Part shown: positions 10,229 to 45,884 of the stretch, piece after piece | How the letters are laid out: every line of letters begins with the position of its first letter | How positions within the stretch are numbered: the first letter of the stretch is position 1 | Assembly (NCBI GenBank): GCA_000442015.1 | Contig: KE560729.1 | Location: 1-49,722 of the forward strand | Source of the DNA: Rozella allomycis CSF55 | Taxonomy: Eukaryota | Direction: 5' to 3' | DNA: 49,722 nt | Made by a program: the position numbers and the translations under genes | Notes under the pieces: generated by a model | The model's input: only the letters and a program-made list of their open reading frames with translations | The model's database searches: none | Told to the model about the DNA's origin: nothing

Positions 10229-10905
10229 ATGGCTCTAAAGTTATATTTTCATGCAGACTTGGTGTATACAAAAGATGCAGAATATGTTAAAGTTTTGGAA
10301 AGAGATGGATTTGGTAAAGGTGTAAAATCACGTTCAAAAACCACGCAAGAACAAGGTAAACTACTTTTAGAGGAGAAATAGAAACACTTCAGCTAAGTCG
10401 CGAGGAAACTATATACCTTTTAAAGAATGGCAAAGCTGAATTACTTACTACAGATAACAAAAACATACAAATGGAAGAGATCTGGTCGAAATTTGTGAAT
10501 AATGATCCAGATTTTATTTACAAGTACAGAGTTTTTGAATATCTGAGAGATGAAGGCTTGATTGTAAAGTCTGGATTGAAATATGGAGCTAATTTTGGTA
10601 ATGCGCATTGAAAATCATAATCGTGGCGTATACTGATTCTATTGAGAAGGTGCATTCGAAATATGTAATATTGATATGCAAACAAGGAGATGATATTGAT
10701 TTTGTACAGCTGTTATGTTGTCAAAGAGTTGTTTCACAGGTACGAAAGGTAAAGATTAGCGAAATTCGTTTTGTAGACACTCTTGTTGGCGTTGCCTCGA
10801 ATTAAGGGAGACTGCAGTGTTAAGACACTCCAAGATCTAAATACTAATATTAATGTGGAACTCGTTGAGGCTAAACGATGGCTACCCCAGAGGACTCGTC
10901 AATAA
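10229..10905 (+). CDS. SEN2: tRNA-splicing endonuclease catalytic subunit, Sen2-like
   Basis: GFGKGVKSRS, YRVFEYLRDEGLIVKSGLKYGANF-VAY..HSKY, RVVSQVRKTLLL and C-terminal RWLPQRTR. Requires the non-AG intron 10598-10623. Confidence 0.85.
10598..10623 (+). other. Non-canonical GT-CG intron (26 nt) in SEN2
   Basis: TTT G|gtaatgcgcattgaaaatcataatcg|TG GCG TAT restores GLKYGANFVAY. There is no in-phase AG before the catalytic Tyr/His. Confidence 0.75.
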
Positions 10906-10982
10906 TACAGATTTTGAATTATAGAATAGATACTACGATTAAAGTCCTTATGTAATAAATGTTTTGAATTAAATACAATTTA

Positions 10983-12541
10983 TTAATCATCAANAACTAT
11001 GCAGTTCTGCTGAGTATTAGATTTCCTCTTAAAGTGTTTCAGGATACCGCTATCCAGTTTAGGTTTCTTGGAATTTTTCTCATTCAAATCAGTTTTAACA
11101 TTTGACTTTGAGGGTGTGACTTGAGTGATGATCTCAATATCAGAATCATCGCTTTCGACTGCGCTATTGTTTTTCTGTAAGACTTTATCCCAAACAGAAT
11201 GCTTCCCTTGCCCCTTTTCAAAGTTTGTAAATGAGATTGCAATTCTTCTACAAGGCAACAAACTCTTTAGATCAACTGAAGATTTTATAAAATGACAAAC
11301 TTTATCTGCAATCAATGACGCTTCATTGTTCACAAGTAAATTCTTGACTGGAATTGATTTTGATCTTGGCGAAGTAAAATCTTTCGTATATTGAATCTAT
11401 TAAAATAATTGAAGTTTATTACGGTCAAAGTTTTAGGGAAAATCCCATGAAATTCTAAAAATAGTTCTTTCCATCTTTCAGATATTTCAAGCGCCAAAAT
11501 TCTAATCCAGCCCATCAAAACATCTTCTTTCTTTACAAATTCAGTCAATGCTTTTGCTGACATTATTGACTTTGGAAAAGATTTCTTTTCAATCTCACTG
11601 TGAATGTCACCACGAATGTATTTGTAGATCCATTCAACTGTCTCATCATCAACAGACAATGAATTTTTAAGTTCCTCAAATGATTTATCCAAAATAGATG
11701 ATACATTTTCTCCAAGCAGCGAAATCTTTTTACCAAGTTTTCCACCCAAGCCAGGCAAGGCATGAACAGGAATATGTCTAAGAAAATCAACTCGTTTCTC
11801 ATAGCGTATGATGGTTTGTTGATCAGGCTTGTTCGCAGCAGACCCAATCTTTGCTAACATTCTGGAATGACTAACCCCAGTACTACAAGTATAGCCAAGT
11901 TTATCAAAAAGAAGCTTTCTTATGTATTGTCCAAATTTAGCGCCTTCATGCAATCTCAAATCATTCCATGAGCTACACATTAACACTTTTTCATACTCTT
12001 CGTCGCCCTTGAAGAATTTTGAACAGTGTTCACCAAAATGTCCAAGATCATTCCAATCCATGCTACCAACAGCTTCGAGTAAGTCATTTGAATACTGTTC
12101 GCAATTTTCTGATAATTTTTGATGCACAAGTTCTGTAACATCCAAGTAAACTTCATCAATGGAAGCTTTTTCAACTATAATCCTATTATCAATATTTGAC
12201 AGTAATGATATAATATCTTTGCTCGCTTTTCTATAAGGATCCAAACTAATTTTATGCTTATTTCTATCTGGTGATCCTTCCACATAAAATGGTTGCCAAC
12301 TATCCACGTTTTCAGGTGAAACAACAGCACAGTGGACAAGTTTCAAGTCTGGACATGCTTCAAGAGCTTCAGTGACCGACATGTGTCTTTGAACACCATT
12401 CTTTCTCGCTGCGTAGTTGACAGCGATTAAAGATTGCCACTGTTGAACTGCCAGCGGTGTACTTGAAGGTATTTGTAATCTTAGTTGCTCAACTTGGCAA
12501 TAGAAACAATCCAAATCAAGATGGATGATAATAGGAAGCAT
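10983..12541 (-). CDS. RAD30: Y-family DNA polymerase eta
   Basis: IIHLDLDCFYCQVE, AVQQWQSLIAVNY, EKASIDEVYLD, KPDQQT; one 26-nt intron near 11397-11422. Confidence 0.92.
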
Positions 12542-12627
12542 TGGTACTTTTTAGATTCAAAATTTCTACAGGCTGAAATTTACAACATCTTTGACGTCAT
12601 GACGATTTAAATTGTGTTATTTATGAT

Positions 12628-12951: not shown

Positions 12952-12984
12952 ACGTGTAAATTTAAGAATTAATAACATTACGAA

Positions 12985-13926: not shown

Positions 13927-13983
13927 TGTAACATAAATTAAAATAAATGCAATTAAATTTAAATAAAGAATACAAAATTTAAT

Positions 13984-15793: not shown

Positions 15794-15855
15794 GAAATTT
15801 ACAAAATTTAAAGATGATCATTATTCTAATTTATAGTTTATGATGGTTTATTGAT

Positions 15856-17086: not shown

Positions 17087-19357
17087 ATGAAGAGATCGTA
17101 TAGAGAGTTTGGTAAATAATAACAAAAAGCAATAACAAGGAAAGCGAGCACCTCGAGAACGCGAGGAAGAAACAAAATCCCCCGAAGAACAGATAAAATC
17201 TCTCATATATGTGCTAGGAGACAAGGTAAAAAGACACAAAAATATATAAAGGTTCCATTATCAGAGCTATTTGAGCAAATCGATTCACTAGTGAATGTTG
17301 TAACTAGAGACTACGAAGAGCACCGAAAAGTAATATTGAGGACAATAGAAGCGTGTGGAAGCCAGTTGCCGCACAAGTTGAATATATATGCATTGTTTGT
17401 ATCAGCATTGAATGCCAAGAATCAGGAGATTGGAGCAGAGATAGCAAAGATGTTGACTGATGCGCTGGAATTTCATTTGTCGGATGGAAAATGGAGAGAG
17501 TTTCAAGTTTTGTTGAGATTTATTGGAGAGTTGGCGGATTTAGGGTTTTTGCCGCTGGTTGCGTATAGTAGTATTGTTGATGAGTTGGTGAGTATTTTGA
17601 AGAGTGACAAGAAGCAGAATTTGAAGGATATGTTTGCGATGACGATTATGAAGTGTTTGGTGTATACGGGGAGGTATTTGATGGAGGAGGATGTTGAAAA
17701 GTATATGGAAGCCATTAAAGAGTATATTGGTGGAAGGGTTATTAATGATTTTGCGTATAAAATGTTCCATTCGGGAGATTTGGAACAAAGGGACTCTTTG
17801 GAAGATCTTTATCAAAGGCTTTGCGTGTTTAAGGAAGATCGATGGTTTAGTAAAATTTTGACGATTATTGATGATTCTCCGTTTAGTGATTTGTTGATGA
17901 ATCAAACTCAAGTATGAAATTGAAAACAAAAAGAGTAGCATGAGTTGAGACCATTGAGGATTGAAGCTATAGAAGTGTCTGGGAATATACCTTTTCAAGA
18001 GAAAGTGTTTTATTTATTAGACTCTGAAGAGGCGATGGTAAATATTGTTTAGTTTGGTGATTTAAGTATCAAAAAGATTCATACCCAGAGAAAGAGTCAA
18101 TGGATCGATGGATTCTGATGGACATTGTTTGGAACATTTGTCATTTCTTTGAAATAAATCATAAAGAATGTGTTCAAGCGTTAATGTTGATTGATGTTCC
18201 AGCGAATGTTAACAGGGCGATTGTAGAAACCATTTTTATTAATCTTTTATCAAACCCTTCATTTAAAATTGCTTATTATGTGACATTGTTGTGTGATTTG
18301 TGTAAATCTTATCCACGAATAATCCCAAAAGACATTGGAAAGATTCTATTTACTGTTTTTGAACAGATGGATGCATGGGAGTTGGATTATTATGCATTGG
18401 ATAGATTTTCTTCATGGTTTGCACTTCATTTATCAAATTTTAATTTAAAATGGCCATGGGATGATTGGAAAGAAATTATTGAATCTGAAAATGGAAATTC
18501 TAGACAAAAGTTATTTATAGAACAAACAATTTCAAAATTACTTTCTTTATTGTATGTCAACAGAGTCAAAGCAGCTCTTCCTGATTTTCTTCACGTTTTC
18601 ATTCCTTCATCTTTAATGACCTTTGATGGAGATGAAACTTTAATTGGAATGTTAAAAGAAAAGAAATCAAAAGAAGAAATAAACGAATATCTTTCAAATT
18701 GCGAAAATTCTTTAGAAAAGTTAATTCACTCCATTTGGAAATTTGGTTCAAAATCTTTTACTTTTATTTTAATTGCAATCGAAAGGTATTTTTTATTTTT
18801 TTCTTTAATAGATCTTTGCCAATTTTAAAAGATTTAGTTTCAACAGATCAAGATCAAATTGAAATTCTTAAATTAACTTTGGAATTTTTCCAAAATAATC
18901 ATCAAGTAAAAAATATTTTCAATTTTAATTCTGATGGCTGAAATTTCAGTTTCTAAGCTTATTAGCTACAATCTAGTTCATCCTAAAGTTTTGATGGATT
19001 TTATCTTTTCCAATCAACAACCTTTAAATCAATATTGGATTTGGAGAATAATCGACGCTGCATTGTCAAAGTCTGTCGATAGAAACATTTATCTTGAAAG
19101 TAATATATTTATATTCTTTTCATTCAATAGAAGAAAAAGGAATGAAAGTAGATTATTTTGAAAATGTAATTTCTGCTTTCATTAAACATTCTTTTGCACA
19201 AGATATGACATTGGATTATCCTATTGGAATCCTACGCAAAGTAAATCTTTACTATTTTAATCATTTATAGTACATCAATCATGTTTCTCCTAGTATCCTT
19301 GTAGACAATTTACCAGAGGACATTTCCTCAAAGTTTATCAATCTAATAAATGTTTAA
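17087..19357 (+). CDS. NCBP1: Nuclear cap-binding protein subunit 1 (CBP80/Sto1)
   Basis: Basic N-terminus, QLPHKLNIYA, DRFSSWFALHLSNFNLKWPWDDW, GSKSFTF, NNHQMAEISVSKL; 8 introns including one GT-TG. Confidence 0.92.
18906..18933 (+). other. Non-canonical GT-TG intron (28 nt) in NCBP1
   Basis: CAT CAA|gtaaaaaatattttcaattttaattctg|ATG GCT gives NNHQ-MAEISVSKL, colinear with CBP80 NHPQMIAVLVDKM. The next AG is out of phase. Confidence 0.75.
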
Positions 19358-22278: not shown

Positions 22279-22306
22279 TAAAAAATTGCTATCTTTATTG
22301 AGGTTA

Positions 22307-25271: not shown

Positions 25272-26892
25272 ATGGTTAAGCATGCCGATGAAAAGAAAGG
25301 TAACATTCTAACTATACGAAGATTTAGAAACAGATGGGTTCTTTACAACTATATTCAACCGCGAATTTTGGATGCATAATTTGTTGATAGTGCCAAAAGT
25401 TCTATTTTTTTCAATGATTTTTGCCATTAATACATGTTATGTAAGTCTTAAATTCTTATTTCATTAGACATACAGAACAAGATTCTTCAGGCATGAATTC
25501 GGAATACCGACAAATAATTATGGAATCCTTGCATCTATTCTTTCTTTGGTTGCTTTTGCATCCGCTCCATTCTGGACATATCTTGCTGACCGATTGCGCA
25601 AACCGAAGGTGATATTGATGATTGCTGCCTTTGGACAAGCCGCGTCATTTTTTCTCTTTCTCTTGATTAAAAGAGGAACAATAGACACTTTGTTGCAAAC
25701 AATGGTAGCGGTTGTTTGCGTAGGATCTTTAGTTAATTTTTTCAATGGCGCGCTTTATCCTTTATTGGATCGAATTGTTGTCGTTATTCTTTCTTCATCC
25801 ACGCATGGTACCATTTCAAAGGATCTTTATGGTCGCCAAAGATTATGGGGTTCTCTTGGCAATTTCATCGCTGTTTCCTTAATGGGTTTTCTTATGCATG
25901 GTGATAATTATCAAGTTACTTACCCTGCCGTTGGGATTTCTTTCACAATATTTTTGATCATCGGTTACTATTTGATACCATCTGATAAAATTCATAAAAA
26001 TAAAAATGTCGAAGATGATCATGACAAAGGTGAAAAAGAAGCAAACTCAGACGCAGAAAAATTCTCCACTTGGGAATCAATGAAGAAGCTTTTTGGAAAT
26101 CCCAGATTTTCATTCTTTCTTTTAATTGTTTTGTTTAACGGCCTGGCAAAAGCAATGGGATCTCATTTCATGTCAAATTACCTTGAAGAGGAGGCTGACG
26201 GTTTAAGTGCAACGAAAGGGCAAGTTGCTATTGCCTCAAATTGTGGCCAAACTATGGAAATATTAATTTTTCTCTTTTCTAAAGATTTAATTCAACGTTT
26301 TGGAATTAACACTTTAATGGTCGTCGCCCAATTGTCCTTAATTATTCGCTTTGCTATCCATTCATTCTTACCTGTTGGACAAAGTAAATTTTGTGTGAAA
26401 TTGATAAAATAAGATAATGAAATTTATATTTACATTGCCTATTTCGCGGAAGCCATGAAAGGAATCAGTTTTGGATGCATGACTGCCAGTGGTGTTATGG
26501 TTGCGGTAAAAGAAGCACCAAAGCACCTTCAAGCTACAGCTCAAGGGTTATTTTCAGGGATCTATATTGGTTTAGCTCCATCTCTCGCAGGCATTATCGG
26601 CTATATGTTGATCCCTGATGTTGCTCCACTCTCTGAAGATGAATCCGAAGCAAGCATTTTGAATAGAAAACTTGAATTACTGAAATCATCGAATGGTTTC
26701 TTCCAACGCAATAATGGCGCTTTCAGACTAGCATTTTTGATGGCTTTAATGGCCTTCATTATCCTTATCATTAAATTAATATTTTTTACGGAACGCGAGA
26801 CAGAAGAAATAAAGTTTAAGAAAATCGAACTGACAGAGGTAAAAAACGAGAAAGACGAAGTATTGAAATCTGCGGAAGCAGAGGTTAAATGA
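25272..26892 (+). CDS. MFS transporter, MFSD6/MFS_1_like family
   Basis: Multiple TM helices; APFWTYLADR, YGRQRLWGSLG, LQATAQGLF; 3 introns. Confidence 0.88.
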
Positions 26893-26939
26893 GTTTCATA
26901 AATAAAAATGCACTTCTAAATTACAACATTTATTAATTT

Positions 26940-27657: not shown

Positions 27658-27800
27658 TCAAGAAAAATTGTCAGCCACCTGCCTAGAAAACATTCACTGT
27701 ATTTTAAAATAAACCATTACAAACTATATTTATTAAAGATGCTTATGTAATATAAATTTAGCTATATGTTCGACGTGGATTAACCTAGCCACGTTTCCGT

Positions 27801-28586: not shown

Positions 28587-28601
28587 ATAAAAGAATTAAA
28601 T

Positions 28602-29876: not shown

Positions 29877-30049
29877 AGTTGTGCAGGGGTTCTTTCCCGC
29901 CAAAGTGCGCAACATGCTCCAGACTTTTGATAAAGCGTACATTTTTTAAAAAAAGAGCTATAAATAGAATGATAATCTATTCTTAATAGTCCATTTATTC
30001 ACGGTGGCTTGTATTCATCGCACTCTAACCAAACACCTTTGTATATATA

Positions 30050-30244
30050 ATGAGCACTACTCCTACACGGGACATGATTTTTGATGCCTTGATGACCGAA
30101 ATTGAACAAACCATTCATTCAGTTGAAGAGAGATTTTGTGAGAATAGACCAGACTATTGTCAAAAACAGAAAAGAGCTAGACAACAGAGTCTTTTACCGA
30201 GGATAGCTAAAGTTCCAATGCATCCAGCTCCATATCGATCCTAA
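30050..30244 (+). CDS. Small hypothetical protein (64 aa)
   Basis: ATG-initiated ORF filling an otherwise unusually long intergenic gap, with AATAAA immediately after the stop. Confidence 0.45.
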   Translation: MSTTPTRDMIFDALMTEIEQTIHSVEERFCENRPDYCQKQKRARQQSLLPRIAKVPMHPAPYRS

Positions 30245-30299
30245 TCAATAAATTAACTTGACATTTAGCATTGACGATTTTAGAAATTTCTAGATTCCA

Positions 30300-31344
30300 A
30301 TGGACGAATTTCTTTCCCTTTTAAACGATAAAAATATTTACGAAGCGCATCAACATTTCATATCTACATGTATGAAGTAAAATTATTGTTATACATACAT
30401 GCAGATTGGAAAGAAAGAAAAAATACCAAGAGTCATTCAACTTGATGATCGAAGGATTAAAGGCTTTAATTGAAAAGAAAGAACATCAAAGTGCCAAAGA
30501 TATTTTTATTCGTATATTTACAATGGCAAAGAAATATGATTACAATATCAGTGCGTTTNCTTGATGATCGAAGGATTAAAAGCTTTAATTGAAAAGAAAG
30601 AACATCAAAGTGCCAAAGATATTTTTATTCGTATATTTACAATGGCAAAGAAATATGATTACAATATCAGTGCGTTTGAAAACGATCTCGTAAATGCAGC
30701 ATCCGCTCTTCCTGCTTCTATAGATGTTACGAATTATCTCTTATCGTAAAACACGTTTTTTAATATTTTCTAGGATATTTAAGACAAACGAGGCATATAA
30801 AACTATTGCACAGTCTTGGATTAACGGTAATATTATCTAAATTTACCATACTTTAGCGGCGGATTTTAAGAAAGCGTCAGAAGCTATAGTTAATGTTAAG
30901 GATTCATATAATTTGCTTGCACCGCATATTGACTCTATAGAAATTGATTTAATTATCGAAATAATCCTCAAGTACTTACTTTTTGTTGACTTTAGAAGGT
31001 ATACATGCAATCAAAATTTGAATGATGCATACATGCTTACTAGGCTAGCACTAAGCAAGTTTCCTATTAACGATACGTTGTCGTCTGATGACATGGTACT
31101 ATCATCAAGTAGCCAGCCATTGCTGAACTTTGCTCAATTATTTTTGCTTTGCATTGAAAGAAATAATGTTGCTCAATTAAAATCAGTGATAAATCATTAC
31201 AGCCAAGAAATTGAAAATAAGAAATGGAAGGCTTTAGTTACTTCTATCGGTCACAAGTACTTTTCAATCAATTTATTTCCAAACGCAGCTAATCAAGTTA
31301 ATCCACTGGCTAATATAATGAGCCAGCTTTTGTCTGGTAAATAA
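30300..31344 (+). CDS. GET4: Golgi-to-ER traffic protein 4 (contains an N-flanked ~118-nt assembly duplication)
   Basis: IYEAHQ, PLLNFAQLFL, IGHKYF and C-terminal NPLANIMSQLL. Confidence 0.8.
30441..30678 (+). repeat. ~118-nt direct duplication flanking N30559 inside GET4
   Basis: Near-identical copies on either side of the N. Confidence 0.85.
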
Positions 31345-31412
31345 AATATAGAATATTTATTTTTTCCTAGTTCGCTTGCATACCGTTGACCGTTGTCAAG
31401 TTGAAAAATATC

Positions 31413-34400
31413 ATGAAATCAAATGAGAGAATTAATCAATTTAAAGTTTACTCGGGTATATCAGGCATTACTTCAATGTCATTAATGGCACTAAATGAGG
31501 TCCAAAATACTCATAGCGTAGAATCGAATATAAACTTGGATGAAAGGAATGAATTGCAGCAAGTACGAGCAGAAGTAGAAGAAGTTATGTTCCCTGAATT
31601 CCCATTTGTACCAAGAAAAAACGATGTTAGATCTTACACCAATTTTCAAAGTAAAAAAGTCAAAGAAGTTACTGACATTATCAAGGAAATTGAATCCAAG
31701 AAGAAATCTATTGAAGACGACATAATTGTTTCACAGTTGGGACAATCGCCTGGAAAAGATGTATTGGGATTCTTAGATATAAAAAGTCTCGAAGAAGAAC
31801 TGATACCAGAAGATTTCCGGCCAAAATACATAAAGCTGGATTCTGAAGATGAGACACCAGAACCGAATTTTGAAATTCTATCAGAATCCGATATAGACAA
31901 TGGATTTCTTCCTCTCATTGATCAGCATCGAATACCTATAGGATCTGATTTGTCTAACGGATTTAAGAATTTCAAACCACCTGTTCAAGTTCAAAAAATT
32001 AACTTATCACACAAAGTTACAGCAAGAAGAAGTACTATTGCTATTACTAAACGGCAGTTAACGAGATTAAATTCATCAATATCCATATCTGAGAGAATAG
32101 AGAGATTGAGATCAAGTGGAGACTTTGGGTCAGCCATTTTTGAGGCCATGAATGTTTCATATGTTCCTAAGCGATCAAAAATACTAGAAGTCATGCATGG
32201 ACACTATGAAGAGCGACAAGATAAAAATAAGAGAATCTTTATGGAAAAGCTATCGGAATATGAAAAAATAAAGACATCAATGCCTATGTTAAAGTTGGAT
32301 GATAAAACAATCAAGGAAATACAAGTACCAAAGCGTTATTCCAAATATTAGAATTATTTGAAGCCAAACACTGATGAGATTATTGAAACCAGCAAGATTG
32401 ATTATGAAAACTATGATGTTCCTGGGACGCCGCCCTCATCCCCTGTTGTGGACGAAGAGACGTTGGATGATAATGATGCCTCTACCGTTTCGGATAAAAA
32501 GATCACTAAAAATAACACAGTAAAAAGCAATATTAATATATAATGATCAAAATTGTTCCAGCACATAGAACTGACAAAAATGATGACTCAAACGGGAAGG
32601 ATTTCACGTAATTTTGAGATTAATTTGTTTACAGTGTTAAAGAGTTCTTAATCGCAAATGGCAAAGTAATTGAATCTTTGCCCCCTTTCATTGCATTCAA
32701 ACAAAAGAATATACAAAAATGGGGCCCATTACTTTGTATCATCCAAGACATGGAAAAGCTCTTAACAAAATACTCGGTTCCGCTTTGCCAAGTCGACTGT
32801 AAAAAGTTGGAGATGCTAGCAGCCAGATTCTGGATGGAGAAACCAACAGACAAACATTTGATTTCTACGTTTGTAAATGCAAATCAAGTAGAAACAATAT
32901 AATTGTTTTACAAGGTCGAAAAAATAATCCGTACACCTGGCAATCTTTACAAATCTAATGACCGAGATAATAACGCTCTGCTTAAAATCCAAGCGACTTG
33001 GAGAATGTACAAGTGTAGACAATGGTATTTGGATCAGCTCAATAGAAAATCTGCAGCTGCTATATTTTTAAGATATTTCAACGCAATTAAAAATAAGAGA
33101 TATTCGCGCGAGCGTTTGGAGGTACCCCAATTTACGCATCCTGACCCAGCAAAGGAAAGCGGAAATTAGGACAGTTTATAAATCTGTTCAAGCAGAGTAT
33201 TACGCGGGGAATAATTTTTACTTGAAATACGAGTAATTAGCTTGCATTGTTTTAGAAAGCCTCTTATTTCATTTTATTGTTCCGCCTAAAAGCGCCCGAC
33301 AGCAAACACACTTTGAAGAATTCTGCAGGGATTGTATTGTGCCGTATACATCTATGTAAATTAATCCTGTAATAGTTATAGATTGACTGATCTTATTGAC
33401 AAGGCGAAAAAGCTCGTCATTATTTGCAGTTTTGAGATTCCAGAGTCTATATTGAGTATCTACAGAAATATATTACGTAAGCTAATCCGGCGAGTTTTTT
33501 AGAATATCATGGTATAAAAATGGATGAAAATGTCATATGGATAATGCCAGAAACGCTAATGTATTACCCTAAATATTCTAGTGTTATTGCTGCGATGGAG
33601 ACAAGTGATAGAACTGTGAAAAAGATATGCGAATTAGCAAATTCTGTTTCTAATAAGTTAGCATTAACCGGGAAATTGTCTACAAAGGAAGCAAATCTCG
33701 TGAATGTAAATAATCCGTATTAAAATTGTTAGTCTATTGATGTACCGTTCTTTGCACCAGACGTCTATTTAAATCCTTTGTCAAATAGAGTACAAGTGAT
33801 GGAATTTTTGCAAAAACATGGACTTCCAACCTTACCTTATCAAATATGCACACCCAAAACAGAAGAGGATATCTTTGCATGCTTAAATGAAATAAGAGAG
33901 AAGCATCCAAATTATCCCAGGTAAATTGAAAATTTGACTAATAGTTGATGGTGTTTGAAGATTAATGACTTTGATAGTTGTGGCATCGCATACATCAGTA
34001 ATTGTTCCAATCACATTAAACTTAGATTCGTCATCTTTGGATGAAAAGATATACTTAGATATGGCGTTTTGTCATATAAAATTTAACAATTTAAGAGAAT
34101 ATTTGATTGCAAGTGGGAAGGACCCGCTCATAATTCAAGCCAGTCCTCACTTGTTTGGTGGTTTGGCTTGTGCATTGTTTCTGGTCATTTATCCGGACAA
34201 AAATTTTAAAATTGAAGGCATGGTTGATCTTATTTTCAAGGAACCATTCGATGCCATTGGTTTCAGAGCGCCATCGTCTGCTACGATACCTTTGGAATTT
34301 ATAGAGAAATTATGCTTGTCCTTATATGAAGAGGGTATAATTGGGTCTGTCACCGTGGAGTTTGTTCTTAAAGAAACATCTAGTGATCCATTCGACACAG

Positions 34401-35707
34401 AATTTGTTATAGTGGACATTAAACCATATTTGACAATGAATCATGCGGATTTTAACTTTTGTTTATCGATTTTATTTGCCAAGTTCTACGACAATAAAAT
34501 TGAATCATATTATGATCCCAACAAGAAAAAGTCGACAGTTTATCTTAATAGAGTTAACAAATTGGATAAGGTAACCTTTTTCTTGTATAATAGAAAGTCT
34601 TTATTAAAAAAGAAAGGAGATGATCAAGATGCAAACATTTATTTCATCTTCATAAAGAATTTAATGCATTCATATTTACAGCTTACCAACTCGTCTGTGA
34701 ATCACTCGATCATGTCAGCAAATGGATTAAGTTTGGAACAAAATGTAAAACTTTACACGCCAATATTTTAGAGCAGACATGGTGTGTTTTTAAGACCTAC
34801 AACAGATCCCAAAAAGTATGACTTGCTTTGCTCGACAGGCGGGATGCTAGATTGTTATACCAAAACTGTTCTGGCTCTTAAAACCTTGCATTATATATAC
34901 TCTTCGGAACTGCATCCCGGAGAATCAAACTTAATGGACCTTTACGTCGCCCTACAATTTTCCTATCAAATAAAGTCCTGTACAAACAGCCCACCAGTTG
35001 AATTAGAAAGAAGCAAAAGTTCAGCGACAAGCACACCAAAGGTTACTCTGTCAAGAAAATCATCGGCAATTGGAGAGTCAAGTTTAAAACGCTCAGGAAT
35101 TGGTAGCTCTTTAAAGAAGGTTCAATTAATGAATAACTATTTTCACGATATTGCAGAGATTCTTTTCGCGATAGACAAGAATGAAGATTCATCACAGATA
35201 ATGAAAAACGAGACGCAATATCAGAAAGTATCAGAATTTTGGAAGTCAGTAAATGTCCTCAAGAGCAAAGTCAAGGAATTAAAAAAGGAAAAGAAATCAG
35301 ATAAAAAGATGAGTCTGGAAGTAGAAGAAATTTCAATAGCGCCTCGATTATCAGTGAGTATGGCTAGAAGAAGAACATCAATGAACCCCGAGTCAGAAAA
35401 ACTTCATGGATCAATAGTAAAATGGCTTGTTGAAGAAGATCAAAACGATATCTACGACAGGTTGCCTAAAATAAATAAAAATACGTCGATAGTCGCGTCT
35501 GTAATACCAGAGACACATGATGACTCTGCAGAATCAGAAAAGCCTTTATCGTTTAGAGAAATACCTCAAAGAAGAGGATCTATAATAGATGAATCTCAGT
35601 TAACTTCTAGACGGACATCCTCTATTCGTGACGGAGCTAATGAGTTTACAAAGACTACAGTTGTAAGAAGAAAGAGCTTGTCCTCTGTGTCATCGCTTAA
35701 AGAATAG
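31413..35707 (+). CDS. IQCH: IQ motif-containing protein H-like (flagellar-associated)
   Basis: WGPLLCIIQDMEKLLTKYSVP, IQ motif KIQATWRMY, RWCLKIND..GIAY and IIGSVTVEF; ~13 introns, two of them non-AG. Confidence 0.75.
32520..32545 (+). other. Probable GT-TG intron (26 nt) in IQCH-like gene
   Basis: AAC ACA|gtaaaaagcaatattaatatataatg|ATC AAA. Read-through stops, and the first in-phase AG would need an 80-nt intron. Confidence 0.55.
33921..33947 (+). other. Non-canonical GT-TG intron (27 nt) in IQCH-like gene
   Basis: CCC AG|gtaaattgaaaatttgactaatagttg|A TGG gives PRWCLK. Using the TAG at nt 24 gives AGT TGA (stop). Confidence 0.75.
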
Positions 35708-35732
35708 ATTAGAATAAAGGCATATTATTGAT

Positions 35733-37193
35733 TTATTTATTGATTATATAGGCGTATACACCAACACTGATGGATAAAAGGGTCAATATTCCAAGGCCTT
35801 GATATGGGTTGATCTAATTGACGTGCTAACTAATTCATACTTGATATCCAGATTGGGTTTTCAACAATTTCACTTGATTTCTTAATTCAAATTCATTTTT
35901 CTCCAAAGAAGATATTTTGTTCTTGTATTCTTCTAAAAGTTTATCTTTTAGATCCTCATTGACTTTAAGCTTGGAAATGTCTTCTTGGGAACTCTTATAT
36001 TTCTCATCAAACTCATCTATGTTATAAAAGAATTTGGGTTATTACTGTTTATCTGTTTCATAGTATTTTTTAAGAGAATCAATTCTTTTTCGCTGGCTTC
36101 CAATTTCACAACTGCATCATGATATTGTTTTTGAAATTTCTCAATTGATTTAGACAATTCTTCAGAAGATTTTTTGATGGTTTCTTCATGCTTGGCTTTA
36201 AGTGATTCAATTTCTTTATTCAGAACTAAAACTTGAGCTTTGAATTTCTCTGAATTCTTCTTTTCTTCAGATGCATTGTTCGTTAATTTAGAGATATTTG
36301 CTTTTAGAGACTCAATTTCAGATTCCAAACTTTTTTTCGTGATCTGTTGCCATTGCAATTATTTGTTACTTGGGATTGGGAAAGTTTATCTTTAAGATCT
36401 TTGTTCTCCTTGACTAATTTTTGATTCTCTTTTTCAGTTCCGCTGTACTTTTTAATTTCTTCCTTCAATGTCTTCAATTCATCTATGAATGAATCTTTTT
36501 TAATCGTGGCTAATTTATCATCTTCAATCACAACAGATGCGTCATTAAGAATAGTCTTTAATGTCCCTTCCAATTCTCCAAGTTTCTGGTCATGTTCATT
36601 TAATTTTTTAATTTGTTCTGATGATATTACGTCGTCTTTCATTTCTACATTCTTTGCTGGGATTATGTGAACAACGCAATCTATTCTACTATAAAGAACT
36701 ATCTTTATTAACGCAATAAATTACGCGATGATTCTTCTTCTTGATAAATGTCTACACCCAGAGTAAGCTTATCTCCTTCTTTCAACTCTACAGGTTCACT
36801 TTCTTCACCTTCTTGACTCAATCGATTTCCATTAAGAAATGTCCCATTGCTAGATTTAGTATCCTTTATGAATATCTATCATGGATTAATAATATTTTCA
36901 TTTACTTTTCCATGTTCATCGGCAGATATCAAGGCATGGTTCCTTGAAAGCACCTTGTTGTCAAAATATCCATTCTCTGATGTCGGTGCTGTCTTTGAAG
37001 ATATTTGTCGTCCAAGAACAATCGGCTGCGATAGTACAAGAACCTTTTCTTCAAATGAATTGTTTGTTGATTCCAAAATTACTGCGGGATTGGTAGGTGC
37101 GCTAGAGTATGTAAACGTTTTATTTTGCTTTTTGGATCCTGATAAACTGCATTTATTCTTCATACCCTTTTTCTTGCCAACGTCAGTGTCCAT
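35733..37193 (-). CDS. FHA + coiled-coil tail-anchored STRIPAK protein (SLMAP/Far9/Far10-like)
   Basis: LGRQ..NGYFDNKVLSRNHA, DTKSSNGTFLN, long coiled coil, C-terminal TM GLGILTLLSISVGVYAYII. Confidence 0.88.
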
Positions 37194-37226
37194 CGTGCCA
37201 ATTTCAGAATTTCTTAAAATTCGGAA

Positions 37227-37780
37227 ATGGACTTTGTGATTCCAGAGGGATTTGCTACAGTAGAAGTCGGGATTTACCGCTCATCTCCTCTAAATAATAC
37301 ACATTCAAAGTATATTCAATCACTCAACCTTAAAACATGCGTTTCATTGTCCATGGATGCAATAGCCAAGAATTTTGTGTCATTTTTTGAAGAAAACAAA
37401 ATACAACTAGTATTTATTAACATGTGACATTAAAGATTAATATATCGCGAGAATCTTGGAAGGCTAACCATGATTGGAAGCCTGTAATGGAAGAACTAAT
37501 CAAGGATAGTCTGGAGATTATTTTAAAGGATTCAAGTCATCCTGTACTAATTGTGTCCTCATCATCTGATGTTTCTGTAGTGATTGCATGCCTTAGGAAG
37601 ATGCTGAATTGGAACTTTTCAAGCATAATAATAGAAGTAAAGTTTTAACAAGGAATTGAATAGTACAGATTTTTTACAAAAGTGAAAAACAGAAACAGGG
37701 AAGAGCAGTTCATTGAACAATTTGACACTGATCTAGTCACAGTGATTGAAAAATCAACACTAATGGAAAGATATTCTTAA
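37227..37780 (+). CDS. Siw14/Oca-family phosphatase-like protein, catalytically degenerate (Oca2/Oca4-like)
   Basis: PEGFATVEVGIYRS, HPVLIV, VVIACLRK..WNFSSIIIEYRFF, EQFIEQFD; no CX5R cysteine. Confidence 0.85.
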
Positions 37781-37790
37781 AACATAAAAA

Positions 37791-38767
37791 CTATTTAATT
37801 CTATTTCTTTCAGCAATCAAAATGCGCTGGAATACAATTTCTATCGTCTCGTTTGTAGTCAAGTTTTTCAAAGCCTATTATTTCAAACAATAAACCGTAC
37901 CAGCTCTACATCAGCTTCAAGTTGGCACGATTCAATGCCATCGAGATACTCGTCCATCGGAATAATCTGCTCCCATCTTGAATGTTTCTGCACGGATTTC
38001 GACACAATCGTCAGTTCATCCTCCAATTCTGCACCATCGTCTACATCATCCAGCGGCGTCCAAACCGTCAGTTTCCTATAATCTCACCAACTACCCACGT
38101 ACGTTTTAATAATCTTATAATCATGCCTCGAAGCATTGTTAATCTGCAAAAACAAATCCACATTGCTCTGCTGCGTCGTATTAGGTCTCGCCGCCCACAT
38201 AATTGGCAATACAGAACACTATTATATAACCGAACAATCATCATACACAAACATCTTTACATACACGTTTATACAGAAACGAATAGTCCAAACAAGTTCT
38301 CGCAAGGTACTCAAACATCAGCGAATTGCAATGCACATTCTCCGGCACATTATTACTAATCGGACTAAACGGATACACCATCCTTGCCGACACTATCTCT
38401 CCTCTACAAGCTTCTTACCAAACGACGGCCTCTGTGTCTTTAAATTCCACGTCAAATAGTACCTCATCCGATCGCACTGCTCATACTCTTCCGGCTCGAG
38501 TTCGCAGTTATTGACAACGTATGGGTAAAAGCTTTTCAGAATAATGTCGCGTCTGCCTGGGTAAACGGAATAATGCAATGTACCGTCTGTGGTGTGGATG
38601 AAATTGGTGCCGAATGCCAATGGATTTTTCTGTTTGGCGACCGTGTGGCCGACTATGCTGAGGGATGATTTTTTGGAGCGCTTCGGACGCAGTGTGGAGT
38701 ATTGGCGTAGGATGCTGATCATTTGGAGTGGGTTGTGGAATGCCGACAGGGGTTTAGATGGAATCAT
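37791..38767 (-). CDS. Mitochondrially targeted protein, divergent POLDIP2/PDIP38-like (YccV-like + ApaG-like)
   Basis: Four 26-28 nt introns give a continuous ORF with a presequence-like N-terminus and several blocks colinear with POLDIP2 (recalled alignment, not a search). Confidence 0.55.
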
Positions 38768-38906
38768 GGAGAGAGGGGTTCAAAGGAACAATTTTATGGA
38801 ATTATTTATAATAGAATTGTGAAAAGAATGTTGAATATTCATTAACATGACTCGCATTTTTATAGCACTTTATATAGGCACCAATTCTCTATTTATTTAC
38901 ATTTGA

Positions 38907-39486
38907 ATGTCAAGAAAGAAATCAACAAGCAATGTGAGTGAAGGTAATAGAATATAAAAAGAAAAAAGCAGAATCCGATGTATTTGTGTACAAGGAGAAT
39001 GAACAATGGAGATACGGTAAATCAAAGTAGATTATGTGAGATAGAGGGAAAGTATACAGTGAGTACGGGAGAAGTAATGAGAAATGGAATGGGGAAGATG
39101 TGTTATGATGGATATGTGTATGAAGGAGAATGGCTGAATGATATGATGAATGGAACAGGTACAATGTGCATTAAAATGATACAGGAACGCTGGTGTATCC
39201 GAATGGAGAGAGTTACAAGGTAGATTTCAGTAGTTAAATTAAGTAGGGCGAGTTTAAAGAAAATAAGTTTGAGGGAAAAGGAAAGTATGTGTGGCCTAAT
39301 GGTACTTTAGTTGAATTAGTTTAATGTAGGAATTGTGTATGAGGGGGAATGGAAGGATGGCAAGTAAAGTGATGGATGATGTGAAATAGAATGGATGGCA
39401 TTGGAGTGTTGACAATGGAAGGATGTAGATGGACGGGTCCATTTGAGCAAGGAGTTGCCAAGAATTTAAAAATACTGTATAAATAA
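38907..39486 (+). CDS. MORN2: MORN repeat protein, MORN2-like (7 exons)
   Basis: YEGEWLNDMMNGTGTLVYPNGESYKGEFKENKFEGKGKYVWPNGIVYEGEW..WTGPF..NLK; six 26-28 nt introns. Confidence 0.8.
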
Positions 39487-39504
39487 AAGAAAGAGTGAAA
39501 TTGT

Positions 39505-39609
39505 AAATAAAGACTATTAAAATAAAGACTATTAAAATAAAGACTATTAAAATAAAGACTATTAAAATAACGAGTATCAAAATGAAGAGCTTTAAAATAC
39601 AGACTAATA
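39505..39609 (+). repeat. 15-bp minisatellite (AAATAAAGACTATTA): 4 perfect + ~3 degenerate copies
   Basis: Read directly from the sequence; lies between the convergent MORN2 and UBA1 stop codons. Confidence 0.95.
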
Positions 39610-39640
39610 AAGACTTTTAACCGATGATATCATAAATTTA

Positions 39641-42600
39641 TTAAGGTCTGATTCTTATTTTAACATATGGCACTTCAACATCATCATCGTTAGCATCATT
39701 AACACAAACTTCCAGAATGATATCTTTAACATGTGCTGGAATAGGTGTTTTCGTGATAGATTCAACCAGTTGAGAGATGGGAATGTTCATTCTTTCTTCC
39801 AACTTCTTTTTGTTCATAAAGAACGAGTAGAGCATGCTAACGTTGCAAGAGACCATAGTGATTGATAGACTGTGTTGAGACTTGAAAATGTCAATTAGCT
39901 GAGAAAGAGTAATGTCACCGTTGATGTCGAATCTGTCCCATAGAGTCCATTCAATGTCGTTGTATTTCAACTTTGGAGCAGCGATTGGTTCAGAGAATGT
40001 GAATAGAGGCAAAGAAAGATTAATGAAGCCATTCTTGTAATCATCGATCTTTCTGTTCCCATCGATAATCTTTAAAAGTTCTAAACAAATTAAACCAGAG
40101 ACTAGTGCAGTTGTTGTAGCGATTGCAGGAATGATTTTGCCAGCGATGAATTTAGTTTTGTGCTTGTCAGCTGGTGGAATATCATAACAAGAAGCTCTTA
40201 GATTGGAAGTTGCTGTGATGAAATCAATGTGAAAGTTTGAATCATCGTCTTTTTCAAAATCAATTCTTTGCATTTTATAGCCAGGTAGTGAATTAGGTAA
40301 AGGTAAAGATTTAATTAAAGAATCAACGTCAATGTTTAGATTAACATTTTCATTTGAATTTTCATTATTTTCAACTTGAATTTTAACTCCACTTTTTGGA
40401 ATAAATTCTTCAACTTTAATTTTATTAACAATTTCTTTAAAATAGTTTAAATCTAGAGATCCTTTTAAACCAAAATTTTGAGCTCTTAAATTTGAAGCAA
40501 AAATGATAAAATCTAAATGATCCTTGTTATTTAAATCAAACTTTAATGGCTTTGGACATCTCTTGGGTCCAGACCAAAAAGGAGTCCCACTTGAATTTAA
40601 TGAATCTGGTGGGAAATTAAACAACAATTGTTTTATATTATTACTAAAATATTCTTCAAATTTATTTCTTGCCCAAATCACACATTGTTCAAAATTAATT
40701 GGCTTTTCACTAACAAGACAAGATTCCAATCCCACAACTGCTTCCTTTAACACATTATTACCTATCAAGTATTACTAGTGGAAGATTACCTAGTTAATCT
40801 CACATATCACTACTTTTACCTTGCTTGGTCAAGTTTTCTAGATAATCATTGAATGATAAATATTGATTAACATTCTCAGCTAGATTTGTAAATAACCCTT
40901 CAAAGATATCTCTTCCCCATTGAATGGTATGTTCAATTTGATTAGGAAAATTCTTCAGAGTACACATTGGAATTGATTTCTCTGGTGGATCTTGAGATGA
41001 TGAATATGATTCAGTTAGAAATGGTACCACAACCTGTGTATTCCCCTTTGTTCCCAATGTTCCACTTTCAAGCAATGGTTTTCTATAATAAACACATCTT
41101 CTATCAACATATTTTCTTGCATCAACATTATCCAATGCATTCGTTACAACATCCAATCCCTCAAAAAATTCATCATTAAAAATATTCTCAGTTTCAATGC
41201 CAACTCTATCTTGGAAACACTCAATCTTAATATCCTTATTCATCTCCTTCACTGCCTTGGCTGCAGTCATCGATTTAGACTTTGAAACATCCCACGGTCT
41301 AAACAAGAATTGTCTATTCAAATTGCTCTTCTCAATGGAATCCATATCTGTTAAATAAATCAATCCTTCCTTTCCACTGCCAATCCCCATCATTCCCCAA
41401 TTCTTCAACATCTCACATCCAATAGCCCCAGATCCAACCAGAAACGCTTTAACATTCTCAACCTTTTCATGAAACTTTCTTCCATACAAATTAATCATTG
41501 GTGAATATCTATCATTCTCACTAGAACACTCTTCTTCATTCAACTCATAATTCTTTGGCAATGATTCAATTGAATCAAAATAGAAATATTGATAAATTGG
41601 ATAAAATTTTCCACTGCAACATTTTAATACTTCTTGCGCTACAATCCCACCTAGAAATCCACTCATGGCTGAAATATATCCCCTCGATTCAAAACTCATC
41701 TCTTTTATTATCCCTTGCTCTATTTCAACACTCATCCCCTCTTCTTTAATCATACTCTCAACAATTCTTATCAATTCTTTAGCATCTTCTTCATTTCTTG
41801 GTCTAGGCAATCTCTTATTCTCTTCTTCATATTTCTTCAATCCAATAAACCCTAAATGAATCATCATCGGTCTATCAAATTTAGAAAAATCAGAAATCAC
41901 AAACTCTGGATCTTTAAAACTTTCTCTAAACGATTTCTACTCTAACACATAAATTCTCCTTACAAATGATATCGTCTTTGGCTGCTTCACTTGTTGGAAA
42001 ATACCCCCTGATACATACTCTGACAAATTCCTTGTATCCCCAATACTAAACGTAAACGGTCCATGAACCTTCACTCTCCTAGGCTCACACCCATTCAACT
42101 CTTGCATCCCCTTAACCTCAGAAAACGTCACATAATCGCCATCCTCCAATCCATGTCTACTCTCCTCCAAACACGTCACTATCCCATCAGCCTCCCTACT
42201 CACACCAGCAACCATCCCGCTCTCAGCATCCTTGCCATTCGTATCAATAACCTCAAACTCTCTTCCAAAATCACAAAACGTAAATCTTTCTCACAAAAAT
42301 TCACCCCCTTACCCAAACAGCCCCCGCACATCAGCAGCAATAAACCCTATCCCACGCGCATGCGTATACTCATTAATCTCAACAAGCTCCCGCAAACTGC
42401 CCTCTGTCAACACAACACACTGGAACCTCTCAACCATCTCCACAGAAAACTCACCATCCAACACATGCACTGGCACATAGCTGTTCAACTCGGCCAACTT
42501 GCCCACACTCGCTTCATCCCTCCTCTTGCCATAATCACTCTCGTGCAGGAAAAACTTTACTGCGTCTATTCATCCCTTACCTGCGCCGCCAAATCCTCTG

Positions 42601-42872
42601 GCTTCACTACTCCCTTGTCATATATCGTCACCGATTTCACTCCAGCCAACACCACGTTCTTTGCTACACTCCATTCACACACTCTATTTTACCTAGTTAA
42701 ACAAATATTCCTAGTCTTACCTATCTCTATTCCTAGTCCCTTCAACCCGATTATCAAAACATCAGATTGACTCATCTTGGACATTGCCTCATGGCCAAGC
42801 ACATATCTATTTCTATACTATTCTATATACGTACAGCTGGCGTGAATATAAACTCTCATCAATAGTCGTCAT
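39641..42872 (-). CDS. UBA1: Ubiquitin-activating enzyme E1
   Basis: [35 protein letters not shown], catalytic [34 protein letters not shown]. Confidence 0.97.
40776..40789 (-). other. 14-nt micro-exon of UBA1 between 30- and 31-nt introns
   Basis: Gives KQ-GNLPL-EAV, colinear with E1 GTQPLEV. Confidence 0.75.
42664..42720 (-). other. 57-nt UBA1 intron made of two abutting unit introns (28 + 29 nt) with a zero-length exon
   Basis: ATA G|gtaagac...ttaactag|gtaaaat...gagtgtag|CA AAG. The flanks give the conserved GIEIAKNV with no residue to spare. Confidence 0.75.
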
Positions 42873-43028
42873 TCTACTACTAGGGTTATTTCAAGGGTTT
42901 TCAGAAAAATGGGAAATTAAGGGTACCAAATGACATGAAAGAAGATTACAGTTTAAAATATATTATGTTTATTTTTAATTATTAATTGATAGTATAAGCA
43001 AAATAAAAAGTATTTATTCAAATTAAAA

Positions 43029-45884
43029 TTATGCAAAAAAGTCAGTCTCAATGTCAGTCAACTCACCCTTGTCAAACATCNCTCAATATCAGTCAACTCA
43101 CCCTTGTCAAACATCTCCCAAAACTTTTCATTAAAAACAAAATCATGCTGGTTAGTAACCTCATCAAAATTAACATTAAACCATCTAGGTTTCCACACAA
43201 TACCCAACTCTTCCATTTCTTTACGCTTACTTCTCTGCTTCTCTTCCAATCGCTGCTTCTCCTCCTCAGCTTCAACAATGTTGCCCTCTTCCATCTTTCT
43301 TTGATCTGGTCTCAACCTAGAATCAGTAGCAGGGAGTTTGTTTTGAATGTCGGGCGTTATTTCATTCAGCTGCATTGTAAACTGAGAGAATCCGTAATAT
43401 TCAGCATTCTCGGGTGGAAATGGATTCGTTTGCCATAATAACTCTAATTTGTCCGAGTCAATTTGTTTATAGAATGAATCATTCCATTTGCCCTTTAAAT
43501 TACAAACAATCTTTTTCTCTGACTCATAAATTGTTCCTTTAACTTCGCAAGCTAAAATCTTTGTAAAATATAAGTATTTACATGAGCCTTTAANAAACTA
43601 AAATATTTACATGAGCCTTTAAAATAACCACTTTCAATGAATTCTAATTCACAAGATTCATTTGTCTTGTGATTCAAAATTGTACAGTTTCCAACATGCT
43701 CTAAATATTTCGTTCCAGCTAATAAATTCTTAACCTTTGACTTAACTTTTGTCCATGTAAAGTAGTCAAGAGTATCAAAGAATTTACAATGGATTGTTCC
43801 CATATTTATCAATTCCAAACTTTTGCCCCAAAATGTTGTTTTTGGTTGAATCGATCCCCAAATCTTAAACTTTGGATGAGAAACGTTAAAGGCTACAATC
43901 ACAGGGCGATGGCTCACTTTCTCTGCAAAATACCTCAAATTTAAATCTGGTCGATCTAAAACAAACGTCTCTCCTAGCAAGGGATTAAACGGCTTTCGTG
44001 TTGTTCTATTAAATGATGAAGAATATGAACTCACAACAAAGGCTGCTATATAGGCTAACCTTTGAATAGAATCACTAGCTTCTATTGCCTTGAATATTAG
44101 GCTTAGATATTCAAAATCTTCGCTAATTCTTTGCAAGAGACTCAATGGTTCATTAGTTGATATCGGCATAGATATCTGTGACATGTCCCTATCCTACCAT
44201 TACTTAAAAGCTATTACTTGCCCATGTTCCTTCTCAGAATCCCAAGTATAGAAATCTCTCCTCCACATATTTTAGATGGTAATACTTTTCTTCTGGATAT
44301 CAATCCATTTTCAATAATCTGATTATTCTCTTTAAAACTTTCATTAGAGTCTGAATCATCATCATCATCTACATCTTGTATCTTAATTTCTGAAATATCA
44401 GAAATCTCATCAAAATAATCTTCTTGTTTGTCTTCAGCGTCATAAAACACTTCATCCATTGTAAATGAAGATGCCTTTGATTGAGATCTATTTCGTTTCT
44501 CCACAGAGAGCCTATGCTCATGATTCAGATCATCCATTAAATCCAAGTATTCATTTTCCAAACGCTCCTTTTTCATTTTACAAACACTCGCATAATTTTG
44601 AAAACTCAATTCTTGCTGAGTCATAATCGCTGAACATTTCGCAAAACAACCCTCAAAGGTTTCAGAAATTTCGTCAATGTCATTTTTACTTACCACCTTT
44701 TCTTTCATTGTCTTTTTTGTCTGCTTTATTTTATCTGCAATTTCAAAATGCATTTTATTTAGATTTTCATTTTCAGCCTTAAACTGTACCAAAAATTTCT
44801 CCTCTTCAGTCATTCCATTTTCTTTGTCGTTAATCATTGATTCTTGACTAGAACTTTTTCTATACGATTTTGAATATCTTGAAATATTGATAGCTCGACT
44901 CCATTTTGTATAATCTTCGGCAGAAACAGCCCTTAACTGAAGTAGTAATGTCCCAGAGTCAATTATTATCATGTTATTCTCGGGGATTCTACTAACTGCA
45001 CAAGTCTTTAAATCCACTGATCCCCTACAATAACTTTAGAAATATCACATAGTCCAATTACCTGTTGGGATCAGAAAAATAGGATAAAACTTCTCCTTCC
45101 AATTGGAACCATCGTTTAGCAAATCCTTGCAGTTTTTTATTCTTCTTTTTCAACAACCAACCACTACAATCAGGTTCATTTTTAATGACAAGATCATTTA
45201 ATGAGTAACCATAAACTTCTTACCATTATTCTTTGCCAAAGTCACAAAAAATGTTAATCTCTTGGAGGTATTAATAGAAAACGAATTGTCAAAATATAAA
45301 ACATACACACCCGGCATTGGAACTTTATAACTTCCCTTGATTGTAAACTTTGCAGAGTCATATCGCGCCAATGTAGACACACAAATCAAATCTTCATCAA
45401 CGTCAGAAATAATAGGTCCATCCATTGAGGAAACTATTAAGTTATTAAAATAACACTACCTGAATCTTTCCTACTGGAATTAGAACCTACTTTAACTATA
45501 ACACCTACACATACTTGCTCTCAATCGAACAACAGGATGTGATTTATCAGCATCACCCTCTTCATTTCCAATTTTTTGATTCTTTGAAAACTTTCTCGCT
45601 CGTCCTGCAACATTACTCGAGCTACTGCCTAGCTTTGCAGGCGGCTGGATCGTAAAGTCCTTCAAACTGGAAAGAAAAAATTGTTCCAATTCTTTATCAT
45701 TGTTCTCCTTAAAATATTGATCGTACTCTCCTTGGCCTAGCACATAACTGGACTTGCGATAATATAGACCGAACGCTATGCCATTCTTGCGGGTAGAAAA
45801 ATTCCAATATAATGTCAGATCTTTACTGTCCGCTGTTACGTAGTATTTAAAGCAGTCTCTTTTCGGAACATCTACCTCCTGCAT
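43029..45884 (-). CDS. OSH3: Oxysterol-binding protein, Osh3-like (GOLD, PH, FFAT, ORD)
   Basis: GOLD (YVLYFDNSFSINTSK), PH (GWLLKKKNKKLQGFAKRWF), FFAT EVFYDAED, ORD RKPFNPLLGETF, EKVSHRP, TDSRLRPDQR. Confidence 0.88.
45195..45223 (-). other. Non-canonical GT-TG intron (29 nt) in OSH3-like gene
   Basis: AAT G|gtaagaagtttatggttactcattaaatg|AT CTT GTC. There is no phase-1 AG before the PH motif GWLLKK. Confidence 0.7.

Follow-up and report, generated by a model that had tools for sequence, protein, structure and literature searches.

Candidate spliceosomal mini-introns with TG or CG 3′ ends in a contig of the parasite Rozella allomycis

Rozella allomycis is an obligate parasite that is related to fungi and sister to microsporidia. 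In the complete 49,722-bp contig KE560729.1 of R. allomycis CSF55 (hereafter, the window; G+C content of 29%–42% in 2-kb steps), six putative introns begin with GTAA and end in TG (five) or CG (one), although few signals in eukaryotic gene expression are as invariant as the 3′ AG. These six are probably real U2-type spliceosomal mini-introns of R. allomycis, a reading in which we place moderate confidence. The junctions at 10598 (tRNA-splicing endonuclease gene), 18906 (NCBP1) and 27231 (PSF3) are strongly supported by homology or by the logic of open reading frames (ORFs), those at 32520 and 45195 are likely, and that at 33921 is ambiguous (Table 1). The observation is real at the DNA level, and its interpretation is plausible but unproven.

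Table 1. Features of the window discussed in the text
Feature	Coordinates	Strand	Gene or basis
tRNA-splicing endonuclease catalytic-subunit gene (Sen2-like)	10229–10902	+	Pfam PF01974 homology
26-nt GT-CG intron, GTAATG..TCG	10598–10623	+	Endonuclease gene; fixed by homology
Exon after the CG site, middle of the catalytic domain	10624–10748	+	PF01974 31–70, E = 1.4e-4
Ordinary GT-AG intron	10749–10776		Curated set
NCBP1/CBP80 gene	17142–19354	+	
28-nt GT-TG intron, GTAAAA..CTG	18906–18933	+	NCBP1 homology
24 nt (8 codons), coding under the TG model, intronic in public annotation	18934–18957	+	
GINS Psf3-like gene (PSF3)	26943–27660	−	
26-nt GT-TG intron, GTAAAA..ATG	27231–27256	−	ORF logic
26-nt GT-TG intron, GTAAAA..ATG	32520–32545	+	Large IQ-motif gene; frames
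Ordinary 27-nt GT-AG intron required by the TG model of 32520	32608–32634	+	
Candidate 27-nt GT-TG intron (ambiguous)	33921–33947	+	Needs 33998–34025 too
28-nt GT-AG unit, intron only under the TG model of 33921	33998–34025	+	
57-nt spacer, two back-to-back mini-introns (28 + 29 nt)	42664–42720	−	Ubiquitin-activating enzyme E1 gene
58-nt spacer, two back-to-back mini-introns (30 + 28 nt)	40762–40819	−	E1 gene
29-nt GT-TG intron, GTAAGA..ATG	45195–45223	−	Oxysterol-binding-protein-like (OSBP) gene, between GOLD and PH domains

Junctions fixed by homology or reading frame

In the endonuclease gene, the upstream exon matched positions 1–28 of PF01974 (tRNA_int_endo) up to its last residue, and the downstream exon matched positions 31–70 from its residue 2; the split codon plus one residue fill positions 29–30. 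Judged by this alignment, only removal of 10598–10623 would join the two matches with exactly two residues between them. Alignment of the upstream exon to solved endonucleases, among them human Sen2, likewise extended to the last residue of the exon, and the downstream exon alone retrieved nothing relevant from the PDB. Reading through the junction unspliced leads to a stop after 4 codons. Twelve routes ending in AG were found here (44–134 nt), all of which delete part of the catalytic domain. The public model P0003, from a single-cell assembly, takes one of them, an 89-nt AG intron (10598–10686); its catalytic-domain match stops at PF01974 position 28, so that positions 29–85, which hold the catalytic Tyr and His, are lost and the exon after the CG site is missing. 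That P0003 avoids the 26-nt site is what a GT-AG-only predictor would do if CG were present there too.

The NCBP1 gene contains an ORF (18061–18828, 255 residues) that is 100% identical to a 669-aa "MIF4-like, type 1/2/3 domain-containing protein" of R. allomycis CSF55. The NCBI model P0001 removes 18906–18957 (52 nt, in frame). When P0001 was aligned to human CBP80 using HMMER, an 8-residue gap appeared in P0001 three residues past this junction, and the TG model restores exactly 8 residues. Adding this segment (18934–18957) raised the PF09090 score from 19.0 to 24.5 bits (+5.5) and moved the start of the match from profile position 120 to 113. Its codon log-odds was +3.95 bits over 8 codons.

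In the PSF3 gene, each flank of the junction has a single open frame and the two frames differ. This difference, together with the in-frame stops, restricts the intron to lengths of at least 24 nt that equal 2 mod 3. Splicing at the first AG, which ends at nt 43, would put the exons out of frame, and an exhaustive listing of routes found no GT/GC-AG intron shorter than 62 nt joining the open frames. Four AG routes of 62–107 nt exist; each deletes at least 13 residues, and three of the four start from a GTTTTA or GTCCCT donor. The PSF3 exons alone had no match in the PDB, nor did the last exon in Pfam. The exon that follows the TG was absent from all database proteins of at least 84 aa, which suggests that both annotations failed at this exon.

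Junctions in the IQ-motif and OSBP-like genes

Two candidates lie in a large gene in which Pfam recognised only an IQ motif and for which a full HMMER search of 1.84 billion representatives returned only P0002, a model from the single-cell assembly. At 32520, the TG intron and the 27-nt intron that follows it together keep the frame, and the AG rivals are pairs of 42 + 35, 42 + 59 or 42 + 23 nt. The first of these pairs is used by P0002 (32520–32561 and 32608–32642). Codon log-odds were 0.28 per codon in the TG frame versus 0.14 in the AG frame. Of the 15 residues in the short exon between the 42- and 35-nt introns of P0002, three are not those of the window; the underlying base changes, as inferred, would all be non-synonymous in the AG frame, as against two synonymous and one non-synonymous in the TG frame. 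At this junction, both codon usage and these allelic differences favour the TG frame.

P0002 shares approximately 97% protein identity with 31379–35704 (+) of the window, although both assemblies come from the same strain, a divergence that points to marked heterozygosity or a mixed culture. Differences of this sort between assemblies could be used to separate coding frames from introns genome-wide.

At 33921, the AG at nt 24 would give a stop, and neither HMMER nor Pfam searches returned a homologue or family match that decides between the models. An initial impression that the 16-residue exon at this junction resembles an ATP-grasp motif was dropped, as these searches did not support it.

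At 45195, the coordinates of the Pfam PH and GOLD_2 domains do not discriminate the TG from the AG model; consequently, it is the typical length and donor that point to the TG intron. The best AG rival, of 53 nt, uses a GTTTAT donor.

Intron lengths and splice signals in the contig

All 92 curated GT-AG introns of the window were 26–32 nt long (26 nt, 25 introns; 27 nt, 21; 28 nt, 22; 29 nt, 8; 30 nt, 11; 31 nt, 4; 32 nt, 1). Together with the six candidates (26–29 nt), they show the narrow distribution below approximately 35 nt that characterises ultra-short-intron genomes. A first-pass annotation of the same DNA had counted about 125 introns of 26–32 nt; the length range is the same in our set, whereas the count came to 92 GT-AG introns plus the six, with two low-scoring stretches lying outside our models. 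The onset at 26 nt is not an artefact of chaining penalties, because lengths of 24–34 nt were free of penalty in the chaining programme.

Donors began with GTA in 91 of these introns and with GTAA in 65, and the 3′ ends were TAG (58), AAG (23), CAG (7) and GAG (4). Across the 78 introns retained from our first chaining run, A at −4 and T at −3 were weakly preferred. The curated introns contained 91 internal AGs, all of which end at or before nt 25, including 22 at nt 20–25. As had been claimed, an AG within the 26–32-nt interval prevails over an earlier TG: a TG at nt 26 lost to an AG at nt 28–30 in all four cases, of which frame decides three and homology to Uba1 the fourth.

Shared features of the six junctions

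In coordinate order, the donors of the six are GTAATG, GTAAAA, GTAAAA, GTAAAA, GTAAAT and GTAAGA, the lengths are 26, 28, 26, 26, 27 and 29 nt, and the ends are CG followed by five TG. The sequences read as described in the first-pass annotation, with GTAA donors throughout and no AG between nt 26 and 32; in fact, none of the six has an AG ending at nt 26–39. They therefore begin with GT(A) as U2-type introns do, and do not end in AG. The next AG ends at nt 49, 44, 43, 42, 40 and 60, that is, 23, 16, 17, 16, 13 and 31 nt past the TG or CG, a spacing expected by chance. The claim that the frame is restored at the first G from nt 26 onwards also held for all six. For 10598 and 18906, homology fixes the boundary independently of this rule, and the boundary base is G. 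Retention of any of the six introns would truncate its protein.

The six stand beside 92 GT-AG introns and amount to 6.1% (approximately 5% in the first-pass annotation), with 33921 counted despite its ambiguity. Their composition scores ranged from −0.1 to 11.7, where the mean was 3.9 for real introns and −3.7 for look-alikes inside ORFs. The base at −2 is T in five and C in one, which matches the base composition of introns, and no special role of T is thereby demonstrated.

Our own scan of the contig for non-AG ends found no junction that requires such an end and breaks the first-G rule. In a control scan, the first A, C or T at or after nt 26 gave 13, 9 and 12 matches, respectively, versus 10 for G, with loose flank criteria that admit many false sites. 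Other candidate non-AG junctions were rejected: 7412/7579, 19333 and 31337 are gene boundaries, 1047, 1485/1499 and 43492 are artefactual, caused by duplications at Ns, and 40773 is part of the 58-nt double intron in the E1 gene.

Counter-evidence and alternative explanations

Several points weigh against reading the six as introns with non-AG ends. All GT/GC..AG routes joining the flanking frames without a stop were enumerated for each junction; frame-keeping distal AG routes exist at every junction and are used in public annotation, so that "no AG" is true only for nt 26–39. Two of these routes stay in frame with modest deletions, namely the 52-nt route in NCBP1 and a 40-nt route at 33921. 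The latter is a single GT-AG intron (33921–33960), and codon usage favours it over the TG model (+5.1 bits over 22 codons vs. −0.4 over 16). For PSF3, the downstream exon matched Pfam Sld5 weakly (E = 0.035), and homology across the junction rests on this match and on a presumed resemblance to human GINS3.

The statistical arguments are likewise qualified. The chance of the right frame is 1/3 per site, where frames are fixed by ORFs and homology, and six of six would correspond to approximately 0.0014, a value weakened by the fact that the cases may have been picked by the first-G rule in the first place. No internal AG ended at or after nt 26, compared with approximately 4.1 expected over 92 available positions, and this zero is a trend rather than proof, being partly built in by the selection of introns with in-frame alternatives. 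One intron with both a 25-nt and a 28-nt solution was placed by the rule itself, which makes that assignment circular. Moreover, among the GTA sites within 19.6 kb of ORF interior, 53 are followed by a first AG at nt 26–32, versus 66 in codon shuffles. This depletion is mild and unable to decide the case of 33921. Because these 53 look-alikes sit inside ORFs, GTA, length and AG are insufficient to define an intron. Other information, such as A+T richness, must help; the G+C fraction was 0.25 in real introns versus 0.37 in the look-alikes. The proposal that the spliceosome measures distance is favoured by the tight lengths, the skipping of AGs before nt 26 and the terminal G in the endonuclease and NCBP1 genes, but not in the form of a pure length rule. 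A metatranscriptome assigned by species label (share 0.00) matched 26000–45900 with three contigs, in chance pieces of 18–24 nt without joints. Finally, human TG acceptors were reported never to be the sole site of an intron (PMC2374985).

An alternative is that these are ordinary GT-AG introns using the next usable AG, 40–167 nt from a donor, and that the proteins carry small or large deletions. Single-intron routes of this kind span 44–134 nt in the endonuclease gene, 40–52 nt in NCBP1, 62–107 nt in PSF3, 40–193 nt at 33921, 53–104 nt in OSBP and 116–167 nt at 32520. The models P0001, P0003 and P0002 follow such routes, and the better codon usage of the 40-nt route at 33921 speaks for this explanation. 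The public models, however, come from predictors that accept canonical ends only and hence are not independent evidence. In the modelled genes of the contig, every single-unit intron found was 32 nt or shorter (this holds for all 92 curated introns, and the two longer spacers are double units), which argues against routes of 40–167 nt. The distal routes also delete conserved residues: PF01974 positions 29–85 in the endonuclease model and the 8 residues of the gap in NCBP1, as well as at least 13 residues in PSF3, there mostly from atypical donors. Ordinary splicing to distal AGs thus seems unlikely as an explanation of the six.

Equally unlikely, in our assessment, is that the TG or CG is used only thanks to a downstream AG, as in human TG-AG tandem acceptors, so that isoforms coexist and those ending in AG are mostly out of frame. 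The AG ends 13–23 nt past the TG or CG in five of the six and 31 nt past it in the sixth, and in the human tandems, the distance is limited to 28 nt and the TG is always alternative (PMC2374985). We estimate, however, that chance alone would place an AG within 28 nt in most cases, and these distances carry little weight. In addition, the nearby AGs would be out of frame in the endonuclease gene, in PSF3 and at 32520, whereas the TG or CG product would keep the frame.

Assembly errors at the six sites or decaying pseudogenes are very improbable: the window does contain single Ns, three of them flanked by near-identical duplications of 118–164 nt, and the two assemblies of the strain differ by approximately 3% in one protein, but this explanation requires six substitutions exactly at −2 (five of them A to T), no N lies within 390 nt of any of the six sites, the genes are otherwise open and conserved, and the endonuclease model of the second assembly also avoids the site.

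Double mini-introns in the E1 gene

The only spacers longer than 32 nt that were found are the two in the E1 gene, and both resolve into standard units. Each unit obeys the length rule alone, and the units are joined as AG|GTA. Removing 42664–42720 yields a sequence that matches yeast Uba1; its second unit has a TG at nt 26 but ends at the AG at nt 29. Of the ORFs flanking 40762–40819, one aligns to Schizosaccharomyces pombe Uba1 as far as residue 629 and the other from residue 634 onwards, and removal of this spacer makes E1 contiguous with S. pombe Uba1 to within one residue. A scan for back-to-back pairs gave seven on both strands versus approximately 1.9 expected, and five of the seven combine an exon with an intron, in either order, or lie antisense.

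This arrangement suggests that the double units amount to zero-length exons and might be removed stepwise, by recursive splicing. Recursive, zero-length-exon splicing is known from the ratchet points of Drosophila. The E1 spacers resemble these in their AG|GTA joint, since removing one unit would rebuild a splice site. They differ in that their units are 28–30 nt long instead of tens of kilobases, and stepwise removal is proposed here from the sequence.

The first intron of the E1 gene (42807–42834, −; 28 nt, GTAC donor) skips AGs at nt 12, 17 and 22 and uses that at nt 28. Its donor overlaps a second GTA three bases downstream, which would give a stop.

Gene models and intron calling

Gene models were built using a dynamic programme that chains open frames through introns, run successively with AG ends only, with every end admitted subject to a penalty, and with AG or another terminal G at 26–32 nt. 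Codon log-odds were trained on 21 ORFs of at least 200 codons each. The first pass yielded 84 GT-AG introns, of which six were dropped, and 14 were added by coordinate to give the curated set. Among the six dropped calls, one re-entered as 10749–10776, one contained an N, one was the 40-nt rival at 33921 and three were shorter than 26 nt. As for these three, the 24-nt call belongs to a double intron, the 23-nt call lengthens to 30 nt after a duplication at an N is collapsed, and the 25-nt call, which has an in-frame 28-nt alternative, was assigned 28 nt by the rule.

The curated set omits the low-scoring regions at 37.2–39.6 and 45.9–49.7 kb. Some of the look-alikes inside ORFs are A+T-rich, stop-free and a multiple of three in length, e.g., around 9474–9500 (−). 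The intron count is a lower bound, as some look-alikes could be real introns hidden from ORF-based parsing.

Each of the Ns at 1040, 1488 and 30559 lies between the copies of a direct duplication (151, 164 and 118 nt, respectively; 95%–99% identical) that looks like an unmerged overlap of contig ends, probably of two alleles. These duplications introduce false repeats into a SART3-like gene and the gene at 30403. At 43594, the N falls within a short duplication of an intron start, and no such duplication surrounds the other three Ns.

Rfam and tRNA scans of the window found nothing, and a search of metagenomes for the DNA of relatives using P0001 found none. RNA-seq of R. allomycis exists, according to the acknowledgements of PMC13393502.

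Proposed mechanism and comparison with known systems

From the sequences, we infer the following scheme for the cutting of the RNA at these sites, its efficiency and the ruler mechanism. An intron would be a short A+T-rich stretch starting with GTA(A), and the 3′ cut would be made within a narrow interval of approximately 26–32 nt from the 5′ splice site. AGs before nt 26 would be unusable, and the first AG in the interval would be used if present. If the interval contains no AG, the first G there might serve, preceded by a pyrimidine. The likely physical basis would be a lariat no shorter than approximately 26 nt, with the branch point so near the 3′ end that few nucleotides could reach the catalytic centre. 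The terminal G of an intron pairs with its first G in the second step, as spliceosome structures have revealed, and under such a constraint, the terminal G could outweigh the preceding A. A ruler that starts at the 5′ splice site and one that starts at the branch point would be indistinguishable by sequence in introns this short.

A broader model is more tentative, and we rate it somewhat below an even chance: that R. allomycis has U2-type introns that are constitutive yet lack a 3′ AG, a ruler of approximately 26–32 nt that needs only the terminal G, GT-YG ends in approximately 1/16 of its introns, essential genes that depend on them, and longer spacers removed as chains of mini-introns via zero-length exons.

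Among the genomes with ultra-short introns are those of Paramecium and the Bigelowiella nucleomorph. R. allomycis is similar to such genomes in its very narrow lengths, in signals reduced to GTA...AG and in the lack of a polypyrimidine tract. Ultra-short introns have also been described in myxobolid myxozoans (medians of 22–27 bp), Dicyema and Stentor, and those of myxobolids and Dicyema end in AG (PMC13644364). The terms "non-canonical", "non-AG" and "acceptor" are absent from the main text of that paper, and Rozella, unlike those organisms, is a fungus-related parasite.

The six share with U12-type and AT-AC introns the occurrence of non-canonical ends in nuclear genes. They differ from them in that their donors do not fit the U12 consensus and in lengths far below those of known U12 introns.

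A close parallel is offered by the human TG-AG tandem acceptors of U2-type introns, reported from 36 genes; among non-AG acceptors, TG is the most frequent (Szafranski et al. 2007, PMC2374985). Like these, the Rozella junctions are GT...TG introns with ordinary 5′ sites and, at distances that chance would also produce, an AG usually within approximately 28 nt. In contrast to the always alternative human TG, they make up approximately 6% of the introns of the contig, essential genes included, the TG or CG would be the sole site that keeps both the frame and the conserved residues, and one of them is a CG. In the S23 gene of Rozella, two short putative introns (approximately 30 nt) without the usual motifs were noted in passing (PMC6349667). 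Judged by titles, abstracts and selected passages, the literature retrieved on Rozella introns and splicing and on non-AG splice sites in short introns gave no description of non-AG introns in Rozella; this literature did not include the original genome paper (James et al. 2013), for which no direct look-up was made.

Biological implications

Predictors restricted to GT-AG ends yielded public models without most of the catalytic domain of the endonuclease (P0003), without 8 residues of NCBP1 (P0001) and apparently without a PSF3 exon. Studies that compare gene loss across Rozellomycota and microsporidia draw on Rozella models of this kind. If the proposed introns are real, R. allomycis would be a natural system for asking what the AG does, that is, for separating early recognition by U2AF from pairing in the second step, and would offer a way to study the distance constraints that select the 3′ site. 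It would also provide a view of the erosion of splicing signals on the line leading to microsporidia.

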